A stretch of DNA of 24,000 nucleotides from an uncultured Chloroflexia bacterium (GCA_963768585.1 CAVYIF010000015.1:86683-110682), one strand, 5' to 3'. Numbered from the stretch's first letter, positions 6,842-8,972 are shown. The notes: a model not told the origin generated them from the sequence alone. Translations and numbers: made by a program.

Positions 6842-6870
6842 TTGAAATGACCGCCCGCCCGGCGTATATT
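6842..6870 (+). promoter_or_regulatory. candidate sigma70-type promoter for the methyltransferase/HgcA-like operon
   Basis: TTGAAA (6842-6847), a 17-nt spacer, then TATATT (6865-6870), in the lower-GC intergenic region upstream of 6900-8972. Confidence 0.35.
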
Positions 6871-6907
6871 ATGAGTAAGTTTTTTATTGGAGGCAACCAA
6901 TGCAAAT

Positions 6908-7030
6908 ATGAGCGGCTTGGCTTACGCCTTTGGTCAAGGCCAGTTGACCGTTTACCAGGCCCTGTTGGCCAAAACCGACGCGCAAGGCGCTTCCGGCCTG
7001 CCGCTGCTGCGCACGGACTGGTACGAATAA
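6908..7030 (+). CDS. small ORF (40 aa, MSGLAYAFGQGQLTVYQALLAKTDAQGASGLPLLRTDWYE), unknown function
   Basis: Third-position GC counted by hand is ~80% (31 of 39 codons), similar to neighbouring genes. GGAGG at 6889-6893 serves a 3-codon mini-ORF (ATG 6900, MQI, TGA 6909-6911). That stop overlaps the ATG at 6908. No homology recognised. Confidence 0.3.
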   Translation: MSGLAYAFGQGQLTVYQALLAKTDAQGASGLPLLRTDWYE

Positions 7031-7089
7031 AGGAGAAAAATTTTACAGAGCGGAAAGATCCAGGGAAGCACAAAGGAGTTTTATAACCC

Positions 7090-7784
7090 ATGGCAACCGT
7101 GTTTATGAAGTGGTTGGAAACCAGCCCAAAGGATTACGACCGCGGGATTCAACTGCTTACCCTGGGCAGAATCCAGCGCGTCAAAGAGAGAATCGCAAAC
7201 AGTTATGCGCATGAAGGGACGCGTATCCTGGAGATCGGCTGCGGCACGGGAACGCTCACCCTGCTGATGGCGCAGCGCGGCGCGACGGTCACCGGCATTG
7301 ACGCCTCGCCGCGCATGCTGGCCGAGGCCGAAAAGAAAGTCAAAGAGGCGCATCTCGAAGAAAACATATCCCTGAAATATATGGACGCCGCCCTGATCGG
7401 CGACCGCTTTCCCGCCGCATCCTTTGACCTGATTGTGTCTACACTGGTCTTCAGCGAACTTCCGCTGGATGACCAGCGTTTTGTTCTGGAAGCCTGCCAG
7501 AAACTGCTCACGCCGGACGGTCGCCTGCTGATCGCGGATGAGGTGATCCCTGCCAGGCTCATCCCGCGCCTGTTCTTTTATCTGGCGCGTTTGCCCCTGG
7601 TGCTGCTTACCTGGCTGCTCACGCGCACCAGCACCGCCTCCCTGCGCGATTTTGACGCGCTGCTGGCCCAGACCGGATTCCGTACGGAGGCTTTCCAATC
7701 GTATCTGGGGGGCAGCCTGGTTCTGTACGAATCGACGCTTGCCACGTGCCGGAGAAGACGCAACCGGCCTGCCGCCAGCAGTGA
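7090..7784 (+). CDS. class I SAM-dependent methyltransferase next to the HgcA-like corrinoid protein; 3' end uncertain (probable frameshift)
   Basis: ILEIGCGTG motif I at 7225-7251, DLIVSTLVFSE, LLTPDGRLLIADE, and a hydrophobic insertion RLIPRLFFYLARLPLVLLTWLL. As assembled, the frame runs without a stop to 8103, out of frame over the next gene. A 1-nt correction near 7740-7750 would end it at TGA 7782-7784. Confidence 0.7.
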
Positions 7785-8716
7785 CCGGCAGGCTGCGGCA
7801 TCGGGTCACGCTGCGCACGCTGCTGCTGGATCTTGGCTGTTATTTTTTCGCATTATCCCGCCCTTATCCCAAGGTGCGCACCGGGCTGTACGCGGTCGGG
7901 CACCCCAATTCGTCTTCGCCCGTGCTGGTGACCGGCAACTTCGACCTGACCGTACGCCGGCTGGTCCAGGCTATCGATGGAAAGGTCAACGTATGGGTGC
8001 TGGTGGCCGATTCGGCCGGGATCAACGTGTGGTGCGCGGCAGGCGGCGGCTACTTCACCGCCGAAAAAGTGATCGCGGCGGTAAAGTCGTCCCATCTGAA
8101 TGAAGTGGTCAGGCACCACGCCCTGATCCTGCCCCAGCTGTGCGCCAACGGCGTGGACGGCTGGCGCATACGCGAAGAAACCGGTTGGGGCGTGCATTGG
8201 GGGCCGGCCCGCGCGGCGGATATCCCGGCCTACCTGGCGGATAAGCGCAAGAAGACGGATGCGATGCGCTGGGTTCGTTTTCCGCTCAAAGACCGCCTGG
8301 AAATGGTTACGGTCACATTGGGATTTTATGCCCTGCTGATCTTACTGCCGGTGTTTATTTTCTGGCGGGATCTGTTCTGGCCGATCACGGCCAGCCTGTT
8401 GGGCTTATCGTATTTCTATGCCGTCGTTCATCCCTGGCTGCCCGGCCGCGACGGCCTCTACAAAAGCATCCCGCTCGCCGGCATCGCCCTGGCCGGGCTG
8501 TTTATCTACGCCGTCCTGTGGGGGCCGCTGCCGGCTCAGCAAATTTTTCATTGGGGGATCGGGTTGACGGCGCTGTCGGTTTTTTCCGCGGCCGAACTGC
8601 AAGGCATGTCGCCGCTGATGCGCGGCGAACAGGCCAATTGGGGCTATGAAGCGGTCATCGGTCTGGCACTGGGCGCGATTTATTGGTTGGTCCCGCTGGC
8701 TATTGGATGGAGGTAA
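7781..8716 (+). CDS. HgcA-like corrinoid-binding membrane protein (cap-helix NVWCAAGG, C-terminal TM domain)
   Basis: GLYAVGHPNSSSPVLVTGNFDLT, VLVADSAGINVWCAAGGGYF (8024-8047), ALILPQLCANGV and GPARAADIPAYL, followed by 4-5 hydrophobic helices. Start is uncertain: GTG 7781 (GTGA overlap), TTG 7739, or a fusion to the methyltransferase. ATG 7652 is rejected because it overlaps conserved methyltransferase sequence. Confidence 0.8.
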   Translation: MTGRLRHRVTLRTLLLDLGCYFFALSRPYPKVRTGLYAVGHPNSSSPVLVTGNFDLTVRRLVQAIDGKVNVWVLVADSAGINVWCAAGGGYFTAEKVIAAVKSSHLNEVVRHHALILPQLCANGVDGWRIREETGWGVHWGPARAADIPAYLADKRKKTDAMRWVRFPLKDRLEMVTVTLGFYALLILLPVFIFWRDLFWPITASLLGLSYFYAVVHPWLPGRDGLYKSIPLAGIALAGLFIYAVLWGPLPAQQIFHWGIGLTALSVFSAAELQGMSPLMRGEQANWGYEAVIGLALGAIYWLVPLAIGWR

Positions 8717-8720
8717 GCGA

Positions 8721-8972
8721 ATGAGTACGCAGCCCACACTTCTTTCTTCATTGAAAGAACACCTCAAATTCGCCCGAGAACTGCGCAATTTGGAGATTCG
8801 TTATGATCCCGAGAAATGCAAAGGCGTCTGGCAGTGCTATAACGTCTGCCCGGTGGGTTGTTGGACGCCGGATTACGAAAAGCGGGTGGTGGTCTTTCAT
8901 GACGCCGAGCGCTGTATTGCCTGCGGGGCGTGCGTCCTGCAGTGCCCAGAGGATGCCATCGAATTAAAGTGA
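8721..8972 (+). CDS. HgcB-like small ferredoxin (2x[4Fe-4S]-type, first cluster degenerate)
   Basis: 83 aa. GGAGG at 8709-8713 lies 7 nt before ATG 8721, and the gene starts 4 nt after the upstream stop. Contains CIACGACVLQCP plus CKGVWQCYNVCPVGC. There is no C-terminal Cys pair. Confidence 0.75.
   Translation: MSTQPTLLSSLKEHLKFARELRNLEIRYDPEKCKGVWQCYNVCPVGCWTPDYEKRVVVFHDAERCIACGACVLQCPEDAIELK

Follow-up and report, generated by a model that had tools for sequence, protein, structure and literature searches.

A probable Chloroflexota form of the CpaM/HgcAB-like module, with a methyltransferase fused to a corrinoid-binding membrane protein

Genes of the module and their family

A 24,000-nt stretch of DNA from an uncultured Chloroflexia bacterium (GCA_963768585.1, CAVYIF010000015.1:86683-110682), referred to here as the window, contains at positions 7090-8972 a module encoding an S-adenosylmethionine (SAM)-dependent methyltransferase, a corrinoid-binding membrane protein resembling HgcA and a ferredoxin resembling HgcB (Table 1). 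We consider it probable that this is the Chloroflexota (Anaerolineae) form of the CpaM/HgcAB-like module, arranged as a two-gene operon, and that it would act as a relay of methyl groups from SAM to Co(I) and on to an acceptor. An earlier note, made from the sequence alone, had described a non-canonical HgcAB-type module of three separate co-directional genes at 6842-8972 and had allowed that the methyltransferase might be fused to the HgcA-like protein. Of that span, 7090-8972 belongs to the module, while 6842-7089 holds the remnant of a CMAS-type methyltransferase gene and a promoter-like site. The suspected fusion is borne out by the close relatives, and the count of three genes has to be given up for one broken fusion gene and one ferredoxin gene, because the relatives are single-chain proteins of 541 residues and the repair of three indels restores an open reading frame (ORF) of that length.

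Gene 1 encodes a fusion protein of about 541 residues in which a short linker connects a class I SAM methyltransferase (CpaM) to a corrinoid-binding domain with a Cys ligand, after which come five membrane helices. An 83-residue ferredoxin, probably with two Fe-S clusters, is encoded by gene 2, which starts at ATG 8721, 4 nt past the stop codon of gene 1. The fusion gene is interrupted in the window: frame 1 is open from ATG 7090 and meets its first stop only at 8103, and the HgcA-like domain lies in a frame-2 ORF that runs from 7652 or 7781 to 8716 and has no ATG ahead of this domain. In the public annotation, 7781-8716 is a 311-residue protein (P0001, 100% identical). A database search with the HgcA-like part returned 4169 matches at E <= 1e-5; the best 120, which were examined, are 81-100% identical to it, and nearly all are proteins of about 541 residues with an N-terminal methyltransferase domain. 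The close fused relatives (81-96% identical) come from Chloroflexota/Anaerolineae. One 541-residue relative is named "CpaM [Anaerolineales bacterium]" by NCBI; JGI/IMG labels the same 541-residue proteins UbiE/UbiG-type quinone methylases, a label that is probably misleading. The positions given earlier for the motifs ILEIGCGTG and NVWCAAGG, and for the 4-nt gap with its GGAGG, agree with our reading of the sequence.

Table 1. Features of the module and of other parts of the window discussed in the text
Feature	Position	Strand	Basis or remark
CpaM domain, residues 1-218 of the fusion	7090..7744	+	frame 1 until the first indel; NF043040, Pfam, AlphaFold2
SAM-binding motif I, ILEIGCGTG	7225..7251	+	sequence reading
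CpaM-specific insertion, LIPRLFFYLARLPLVLLTWLLT	7558..7623	+	AlphaFold2 helix, residues 157-178, and conservation
Extra base CCA[C]GTG, frame 1 to 2, splits the methyltransferase from the HgcA-like part	7745	+	alignment to L001
Compensating indel pair	7833..7860	+	base missing after 7833 (GGATCT-TGG); extra base at 7860 (TCCC[G]CCC)
Remainder of the fusion: linker, HgcA-like corrinoid-binding domain, transmembrane domain	7746..8716	+	NF043039 match
Corrinoid-binding domain, CFeSP large-subunit C-terminal type	7871..8251	+	Pfam CdhD PF03599, PDB alignments, Foldseek
Cap-helix motif NVWCAAGG; Cys codon 8033-8035	8024..8047	+	sequence reading
Five-helix C-terminal membrane domain, residues 399-538 of the repaired protein	8285..8704	+	AlphaFold2 model of P0002
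GGAGG ribosome-binding site, 7 nt ahead of the ferredoxin ATG	8709..8713	+	sequence reading
Stop TAA of the fusion gene	8714-8716	+	sequence reading
HgcB-like ferredoxin, 83 residues	8721..8972	+	NF043039 C-terminal match
First Fe-S motif, CKGVWQCYNVCPVGC	8817..8861	+	family comparison
Second [4Fe-4S] motif, canonical, CIACGACVLQCP	8913..8948	+	sequence reading; Pfam Fer4
GH3 beta-glucosidase, first piece	4514-4888	-	
GH3 beta-glucosidase, second piece	4180-4590	-	GH3 N-terminal domain
GH3 beta-glucosidase, third piece	3688-4164	-	GH3 C-terminal domain start
GH3 beta-glucosidase, fourth piece	2288-3697	-	rest of GH3_C, Fn3-like, PA14
Promoter-like site TTGAAA-17-TATATT	6842-6870		

The methyltransferase domain belongs to the NCBIfam family CpaM, "corrinoid protein-associated methyltransferase" (NF043040), a family name for methyltransferases adjacent to HgcA-like proteins of the kind alluded to in the earlier note. 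It scores 287.1 bits as the window ORF and 285.6 bits as the repaired protein (cutoff 180; E = 7e-86), residues 4-214 being aligned with profile positions 3-213 of 216, and it also matches the Pfam families Methyltransf_25, Methyltransf_11 and Methyltransf_12. In the AlphaFold2 (AF2) model it is a Rossmann fold whose nearest PDB folds are small-molecule class I methyltransferases, and the GCGTG core of motif I is kept in at least 90% of 62 CpaM domains. The hydrophobic insertion reported for this class I enzyme is real: LIPRLFFYLARLPLVLLTWLLT forms a single hydrophobic or amphipathic helix of 22 residues (157-178) in the model, lies within the CpaM profile match, and follows a pattern, R.Pl...t.llt.t.T, that is conserved in the 62 CpaM domains from many phyla. 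A second family-specific element is the N-terminal segment MkxLEsxPxrYDxGi..ltlGr. Both elements are located on the substrate side of CpaM and are conserved from archaea to bacteria; such conservation in the sequences suggests a constant partner, either the corrinoid or the membrane domain, over a variable small molecule.

Two other identities of the methyltransferase were considered and rejected. Arsenite methyltransferases of the ArsM type carry conserved As(III)-binding cysteines. Across the 62 CpaM domains no Cys is conserved besides that of GCGTG, so CpaM is without an ArsM-like metalloid site, and its score against ArsM (NF008823) is 34 bits with a cutoff of 263. As for a cobalamin-dependent (class B) radical SAM enzyme, which would have a radical-SAM core with a CxxxCxxC cluster of three Cys, none of the three ORFs gave a Radical_SAM match in Pfam or NCBIfam, and the Cys clusters are of the ferredoxin type only. 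CpaM also resembles BchM/ChlM (49 bits) and the CbiT-type structure 1f38, in both cases weakly.

The HgcA-like part of the fusion, here called A, contains all three of the peptide blocks GLYAVGHPNSSSPVLVTGNFDLT, ALILPQLCANGV and GPARAADIPAYL. It scores 268.8-271.6 bits (E = 1e-79) against HgcAB_like (NF043039), a family of single polypeptides with both HgcA-like and HgcB-like parts, which in the window are found on two genes. The ferredoxin, called B, covers positions 273-349 of the same 350-position profile (74.9 bits, E = 9e-21), and when A and B are joined in silico the score is 341.2 bits over positions 3-349. That A by itself falls just under the cutoff of 285 follows from swapped fusion points: the window has a CpaM-A fusion and a separate ferredoxin, whereas in the catalogued form A is joined to B and CpaM stands alone. 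That form (NF043040/NF043039) and the window have homologous methyltransferase, corrinoid, membrane and ferredoxin modules. Three further profiles stay under their cutoffs, namely HgcA (NF040863; 181-184 bits, cutoff 275), HgcB (NF040864; ferredoxin 42-46 bits, cutoff 99) and the gamma/large subunit of the corrinoid iron-sulfur protein (CFeSP; NF003195, 85-86 bits, cutoff 306). Among control proteins, those with a GK cap helix score 412-430 bits on HgcA and those without the Lys score 336-401 bits on HgcAB_like. The scores therefore uphold the description of the module as non-canonical HgcAB-type: in its content it is HgcAB-like, and it is neither HgcA/HgcB nor CFeSP.

Within A, the Trp and the Cys of the cap helix are shared without exception by 45 diverse family members, and this Cys is presumed to be the lower cobalt ligand. 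The motif NVWCAAGG has Gly where the GK of HgcA has Lys, and so departs from the HgcA motif N(V/I)WC(A/S)(A/G)GK (as in PMC10087281). An exhaustive search of cluster representatives gave 1161 clusters at E <= 1e-3, of which the best 150 are of two kinds, one with NVWCAAGKG and no fused ferredoxin, the other with NVWCxxxGG, no Lys and usually a ferredoxin tail with two CxxCxxCxxxC motifs. The change from GK to GG had been listed as a difference of this locus. The Cys is indeed kept and the Lys absent, but the Lys is lacking in all close relatives too, and by sequence comparison GG in place of GK is a hallmark of the HgcAB-like family and not a quirk of the locus. The window protein thus has the HgcA-type Cys ligand together with a C-terminal multi-helix membrane domain. 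For the latter, about 150 residues with four to five hydrophobic helices had been described after the HgcA blocks, and the AF2 model of the 541-residue relative P0002 (mean predicted local distance difference test score, pLDDT, 92.7) has five, at residues 399-424, 426-449, 455-477, 482-506 and 513-538.

The corrinoid domain is of the kind found at the C-terminus of the CFeSP large subunit. It matches Pfam CdhD (PF03599) with 59 bits over profile positions 267-386 of 387, and the PDB chains 4djd_C (48 bits) and 2h9a_A align with this domain only. A PDB sequence search found no solved structure of the HgcAB type, CFeSP alone being matched; in Foldseek the fusion model is matched best by the integrative HgcAB model 9a0b_A (2020) and then by small-molecule class I methyltransferases. 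The Rossmann-like corrinoid-binding domain is thus homologous to that of the CFeSP of the Wood-Ljungdahl pathway (AcsC/AcsD, CdhE/CdhD; 4djd, 2h9a). CFeSP is not known to have a protein ligand to cobalt, receives its methyl group from methyl-tetrahydrofolate via MeTr, is soluble, and has Fe-S and TIM-barrel domains of its own. In the aligned CFeSP chains a non-ligating Thr occupies the position of the cap-helix Cys of the window, and GK is present at the GG/GK position. This shared domain is what could be said for an AcsC/CdhE-type protein of the acetyl-CoA pathway at 7090-8972, a reading to which we give next to no probability: the match to the CFeSP profile is confined to its last ~125 residues (positions 323-448 of 450), the model has membrane and methyltransferase domains instead of an N-terminal Fe-S domain or a TIM barrel, and the window contains no acs or cdh genes.

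A neighbour-joining (NJ) tree of the corrinoid domain was built from 151 sequences and 127 columns, with two CFeSP fragments from the PDB alignments as the outgroup. In this tree all 49 GK-type sequences, with 2 of GE type, form one clade (bootstrap 134/200) that does not include the window, and the window is placed among methyltransferase-A fusions. The position outside the GK-type HgcA clade is the one that the earlier reading called for, and it agrees with the published two-clade picture of fused hgcAB and hgcA (bioRxiv 10.1101/2022.11.21.517362). Monophyly of the HgcAB-like sequences was recovered in 35 of the 200 bootstraps, and the CFeSP-rooted tree does not settle whether they are sister or paraphyletic to HgcA. 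As judged by sequence, the CpaM/HgcAB-like module may be called a sister system of HgcAB with that reservation about the root.

The second motif of the ferredoxin matches Pfam Fer4 (PF00037) with 43 bits. The first had been considered degenerate. It has the pattern C-x5-C-x3-CP-x2-C, in which the second Cys of CxxCxxCxxxCP has moved to three residues past the Pro, and this relocated form is conserved in the Chloroflexota clade, where one locus (L014) has the canonical motif without the extra Cys. Among 113 distinct ferredoxin domains of the family, 52 are canonical, 37 relocated, 16 have neither Cys and 8 have both, and the two Cys positions covary (Fisher p = 7e-10, phylogeny not being corrected for). 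What looked like degeneration is instead the conserved displacement of a single Cys ligand. Past the second motif the protein has just 7 more residues and no further Cys, so that the absence of a C-terminal Cys pair is confirmed for the window; as a peculiarity of the locus it does not stand, since it is a family-wide trait. In HgcB an internal Cys, C73 (in GVGC), and the C-terminal pair C94/C95 are needed for mercury methylation (PMC11588087). Of 15 ferredoxins beside true hgcA, 14 have both GVGC and a CC at the C-terminus, features that are missing from the window ferredoxin and from nearly all HgcAB-like members.

These results bear on the simplest alternative, an ordinary mercury-methylating hgcAB pair (NF040863/NF040864) whose differences are sequencing noise. 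The window does share with HgcAB the overall plan, a CFeSP-type corrinoid domain, the Cys of NVWC, a five-helix membrane domain and a ferredoxin directly downstream, and the HgcAB model 9a0b_A is its best structural match. We nevertheless hold this alternative to be very improbable, given the HgcA and HgcB scores far under their cutoffs, a GK cap helix in HgcAB where the window and all of its close relatives lack the Lys, a ferredoxin with neither GVGC nor the C-terminal CC, the position of the window outside the HgcA clade, and a methyltransferase of a family that never occurs beside true hgcA (see below).

Frame breaks in the fusion gene

Compared with L001, a 96%-identical metagenome contig, the window has three 1-nt indels in the linker of the fusion gene: one base too many at 7745 and again at 7860, and one base too few after 7833. 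Their repair gives a 541-residue ORF that is identical to P0002 at 533 of 541 residues. Across 7745, P0002 reads ...STLASAGQDATG..., and removal of the base there restores the frame. Between 7833 and 7860 the true frame reads WLLFFRIIPP and the called ORF GCYFFALSRP; all relatives carry DLWLLFFRI(I/V)PPYPKV at this site. The ratio of nonsynonymous to synonymous substitution rates (dN/dS) between the repaired fusion gene and its counterpart in L001 is 0.14, a sign of strong constraint on the repaired gene.

The three indels are probably assembly errors, and the organism therefore probably makes an intact protein. We favour this explanation because, in addition to the low dN/dS, other genes of the window are also frame-broken and the related assemblies resemble long-read data. 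A GH3 beta-glucosidase gene (2288-4888, minus strand) lies in at least 3 or 4 ORFs (Table 1), a further sign of numerous single-base indels in the assembly, and a gene for an S24/S26 peptidase with a DUF5305 domain (11251-12883, minus strand), which is one 537-residue gene in L001, is split into 383 and 179 residues by an indel at about 12412. L001 has an indel of its own, a frameshift within the ferredoxin gene, and the related contigs have names and lengths in a long-read style, which suggests that these assemblies are long-read. Two of the indels in the window fall on GATC sites (7834 and 12412), and basecalling errors related to methylation may be the reason.

The alternative is that the frame breaks are real. 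The window copy would then be a recently inactivated or decaying pseudogene, or else a gene that has been split again into a methyltransferase with a junk tail and a 311-residue HgcA-like protein restarting at GTG 7781. The indels are confined to 116 nt of linker, and the coding parts of the 9.2 kb aligned to L001 are mostly indel-free; an adjacent CMAS-type methyltransferase gene of L001 is deleted in the window, and the 311-residue product is the one called in the public annotation. The clustering and the deletion mean that decay of this copy has to be reckoned with, but we judge it rather unlikely. It leaves the breaks in the GH3 and S24/S26 genes, the frameshift in the sister contig and the long-read look of the related assemblies to one side; with a dN/dS of 0.14 and just 8 of 541 residues differing from P0002, the gene does not resemble a decayed one, and GTG 7781 is without a good ribosome-binding site.

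CpaM partnership and the proposed methyl relay

Scanning one genome per species yielded at least 598 loci, of which the best 80 were fetched and, with the window and L001, make up a set of 82. The 14 closest fetched loci are all from Chloroflexota (Anaerolineae, Anaerolineales, Ardenticatenaceae), and the others come from many bacterial phyla and from archaea (Hadarchaeota, Bathyarchaeia, Heimdallarchaeota, Methanofastidiosia, Thermoplasmata). A hidden Markov model (HMM) of CpaM built from 13 fused methyltransferase domains gave bimodal scores, with 62 matches at 187 bits or more, one truncated copy at 122 and generic methyltransferases at 72 or less. Of the 66 loci without the cap-helix Lys, the window and L001 included, 63 have CpaM either in one ORF with the HgcAB-like part or immediately upstream of it in the same orientation; of the three exceptions, two run out of contig after at most 300 nt upstream, and the third is a 2.3-kb contig. 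CpaM is found within 6 kb of a GK-type (true) hgcA in none of 16 loci. A dedicated SAM enzyme, proposed earlier from its adjacency in the window, is thus a conserved neighbour, and the partnership with CpaM is obligatory for the HgcAB-like family. The catalogued HgcAB-like fusion, like the window, lacks the cap-helix Lys and the C-terminal Cys pair and has this same partner.

Three architectures occur. The catalogued form, seen in most other lineages, has CpaM on its own ahead of an A-B fusion. A CpaM-A fusion with a separate B after it occurs in the window, in all 15 Chloroflexota loci and in one further locus (L047, described below), and a separate ferredoxin gene is present 3' of the fusion gene in all 14 Chloroflexota loci with a downstream flank (L001-L012, L014 and L082). 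The third is a CpaM-A-B triple fusion of 582-644 residues (for example P0177 and P0158). Altogether CpaM is in one ORF with the HgcAB-like part in 17 of the 66 loci, the fusions fall in several separate, weakly supported places of the NJ tree, and the CpaM-A linkers are short (24-39 residues). The AF2 models (pLDDT 92.7 and predicted TM-score, pTM, 0.77 for the 541-residue fusion; pLDDT 93.2 and pTM 0.90 for a natural triple fusion) predict compact assemblies.

Other neighbours are less constant, and a search for conserved ones that could give away the acceptor yielded a TetR regulator and ABC-2 exporters alone. Of the 66 HgcAB-like loci, 17 have a gene for a TetR-family regulator immediately upstream of CpaM; these come from many phyla (for example L005 4318-4956, L008 8718-9332 and L039 3885-5279), and none of the 16 hgcA loci has such a gene. 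For hgcAB of strain ND132 an ArsR-like regulator is described instead (bioRxiv 10.1101/2022.10.17.512643). ABC ATPase genes are found near 8 loci and ABC-2 permease genes near 4, mostly downstream. These neighbours, of which neither the TetR regulator nor ABC-2 exporter genes are present in the window, hint at a small-molecule, xenobiotic or detoxification context. Two further methyltransferases were considered as partners and rejected for lack of conservation, the CMAS-type gene upstream in L001 and an ICMT/PEMT-type gene downstream in L082, which did not recur in the other loci. The latter, at L082 6921-7604 (a 5.37-Mb contig of ERZ25039495), encodes a membrane methyltransferase directly after the fusion and ferredoxin genes.

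We propose the following mechanism, which is inferred in all its parts, the direction of methyl flow and the acceptor included. The ferredoxin would supply low-potential electrons that reduce Co(II) to Co(I). CpaM would bind SAM and, by means of its N-terminal segment and long inserted helix, offer the methyl group to Co(I), giving a thiolate-ligated methyl-Co(III), and the methyl group could then be passed on to an acceptor at or in the membrane. SAM provides the methyl group for HgcAB, where it methylates Co(I) without a separate methyltransferase (PMC11588087), and the same donor is proposed here. The acceptor is probably not Hg(II): the cysteines on which mercury methylation by HgcB depends are absent from the window module, and, as indirect evidence, no methylmercury was formed by organisms in culture that carry fused HgcAB-like genes (PMC4646819, PMC10087281).

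Several points count against the interpretation that we prefer. We know of no class I Rossmann-fold methyltransferase that has been shown to methylate a protein-bound corrinoid, and the literature searched contained no biochemistry of any HgcAB-like or CpaM member. HgcAB makes use of SAM without a CpaM-like domain, and the role of CpaM might therefore be a different one. The phylogeny is a single NJ analysis of 127 columns in which the HgcA split has a bootstrap of just 67% and the root is not settled. Finally, random errors would not usually cluster as tightly as three indels within 116 nt, and a deletion has removed the neighbouring CMAS-type gene from the window.

The third of these points leads to another possible role, in which CpaM does not load cobalt at all. 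It could tailor the corrinoid cofactor or methylate the end substrate from SAM, with the corrinoid protein and ferredoxin carrying out, for example, reductive dehalogenation or demethylation. Class I methyltransferases that act on tetrapyrroles exist, and the weak BchM/ChlM and CbiT-type matches would fit one; the TetR regulators and ABC-2 exporters near some loci hint at small molecules or xenobiotics; according to a preprint, heterologously expressed HgcAB dechlorinates CCl4 (bioRxiv 10.64898/2026.04.26.720869). We think such a role unlikely. The partnership is stoichiometric, is covalent in several lineages and uses short linkers, which fits a repeated hand-off better than tailoring that happens once per cofactor; the elements on the substrate side of CpaM are kept from phylum to phylum, which would be expected if its partner were constant, like the corrinoid; and the AF2 models show a single compact assembly.

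For the preferred relay from SAM to Co(I), precedents are available in logic but not in fold. TsrM and the reactivation domain of MetH carry out non-radical methyl transfer that involves SAM and cobalamin. The estrogen methyltransferase EmtABCD (PMC7448270) and HgcAB itself (PMC11588087) likewise transfer a methyl group from SAM to cobalamin by a non-radical route. TsrM, MetH and EmtABCD follow the logic proposed for the window, in which SAM methylates cob(I)alamin, a difficult acceptor is served and a low-potential reductant keeps the cobalt active. Their folds are unrelated to those of the window, EmtA being MtmB-like, TsrM having a radical-SAM fold and the MetH activation domain a fold of its own, and they are without a class I Rossmann methyltransferase, a Cys ligand to cobalt and a membrane domain. 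To our knowledge, there is no SAM-to-cobalamin precedent with a class I methyltransferase.

A bolder interpretation, which we offer tentatively and regard as somewhat doubtful, is that CpaM is a Rossmann-fold SAM:corrinoid methyltransferase which, with the Cys-ligated, membrane-anchored corrinoid protein and the ferredoxin, makes up a new class of SAM- and B12-dependent methylases, and that HgcAB is a derivative that has lost CpaM. The acceptor would then be soft or non-nucleophilic but not Hg; a metalloid, an electrophilic or halogenated carbon, and a lipid or quinone of the membrane are examples. A hint in this direction comes from L047 (5296-7520 of JACRIR010000085, a metagenome-assembled genome of Candidatus Poribacteria), which may be an intermediate between the HgcA and HgcAB-like families; if so, the HgcAB-like family would keep the ancestral function from which mercury methylation arose. 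L047 encodes a CpaM-fused corrinoid membrane protein with the cap helix NVWCAAGEG and nearly equal scores on HgcA (231 bits) and HgcAB-like (237 bits). For its separate ferredoxin the best match is HgcB (77.7 bits, under the cutoff of 99); a GPGC motif is present and a CC tail is missing.

The family itself is not new. Fused HgcAB-like proteins have been known since 2015, and NCBIfam names both the family and its methyltransferase partner, so that the novelty earlier attributed to the three-gene arrangement was overrated. On sequence grounds, the window holds a lineage-specific domain rearrangement of a system that is catalogued but uncharacterised. The literature searched contained no paper on the methyltransferase partnership or on the CpaM-A fusion; the preprint on ArsR and hgcAB mentions SAM methyltransferases only in another context. 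The HgcAB-like family occurs in archaea and many bacterial phyla and is especially common in metagenomic Anaerolineae. Its interest lies in what HgcAB natively does and in how mercury methylation arose, questions that the CpaM partnership makes testable: with SAM shown in 2024 to be the methyl donor of HgcAB, an obligatory and repeatedly fused CpaM suggests a concrete experiment on the interplay of SAM, corrinoid and membrane domain and on the substrate that the family methylates, and the module offers good experimental access to the chemistry of HgcAB and to its origin. There is also a practical side, as HgcAB-like proteins are false positives in surveys for hgcA; a cap helix with GG and not GK, in combination with a CpaM that is fused or adjacent, sets them cleanly apart.

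Two further groups of proteins were seen among the relatives. P0255 (445 residues) is a genuine HgcA-HgcB fusion with the GK motif and a Cys-rich C-terminal tail, and it exceeds the cutoffs of both HgcA (334 bits, cutoff 275) and HgcB (108.8 bits, cutoff 99); "fused" is therefore not always a mark of the non-methylating HgcAB-like family. P0193, P0218, P0230, P0233 and P0247 (477-501 residues) have an unidentified N-terminal extension of about 145 residues where CpaM is located otherwise, and this subgroup has an odd cap helix, N(V/I)WC(S/A)S(L/E)xx.

Surroundings of the module in the window

Upstream of the module, 6908-7030 encodes the last ~40 codons (ending ...GASGLPLLRTDWYE*) of a CMAS-type methyltransferase gene that is intact in L001 (430 residues, 6628-7920). 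About 1.1 kb is missing from the window at this site (6672-7030) in comparison with L001. The genes for TauE, an alpha/beta hydrolase, APH and AlaX that neighbour the module in the window are not conserved with it.

Elsewhere, 12954-14472 is a tandem duplication with a period of about 629 nt and copies 77-96% identical, covering small ORFs of 136 residues without a Pfam match; L001 has two paralogous 133-residue genes at this place. An IS200/Y1-type transposase is encoded at 20558-21052 on the plus strand. In L001 the IS200/Y1-type transposase gene is located elsewhere, at 4065-4610, where it adjoins a region in which the two contigs differ (2213-5118 of the window).

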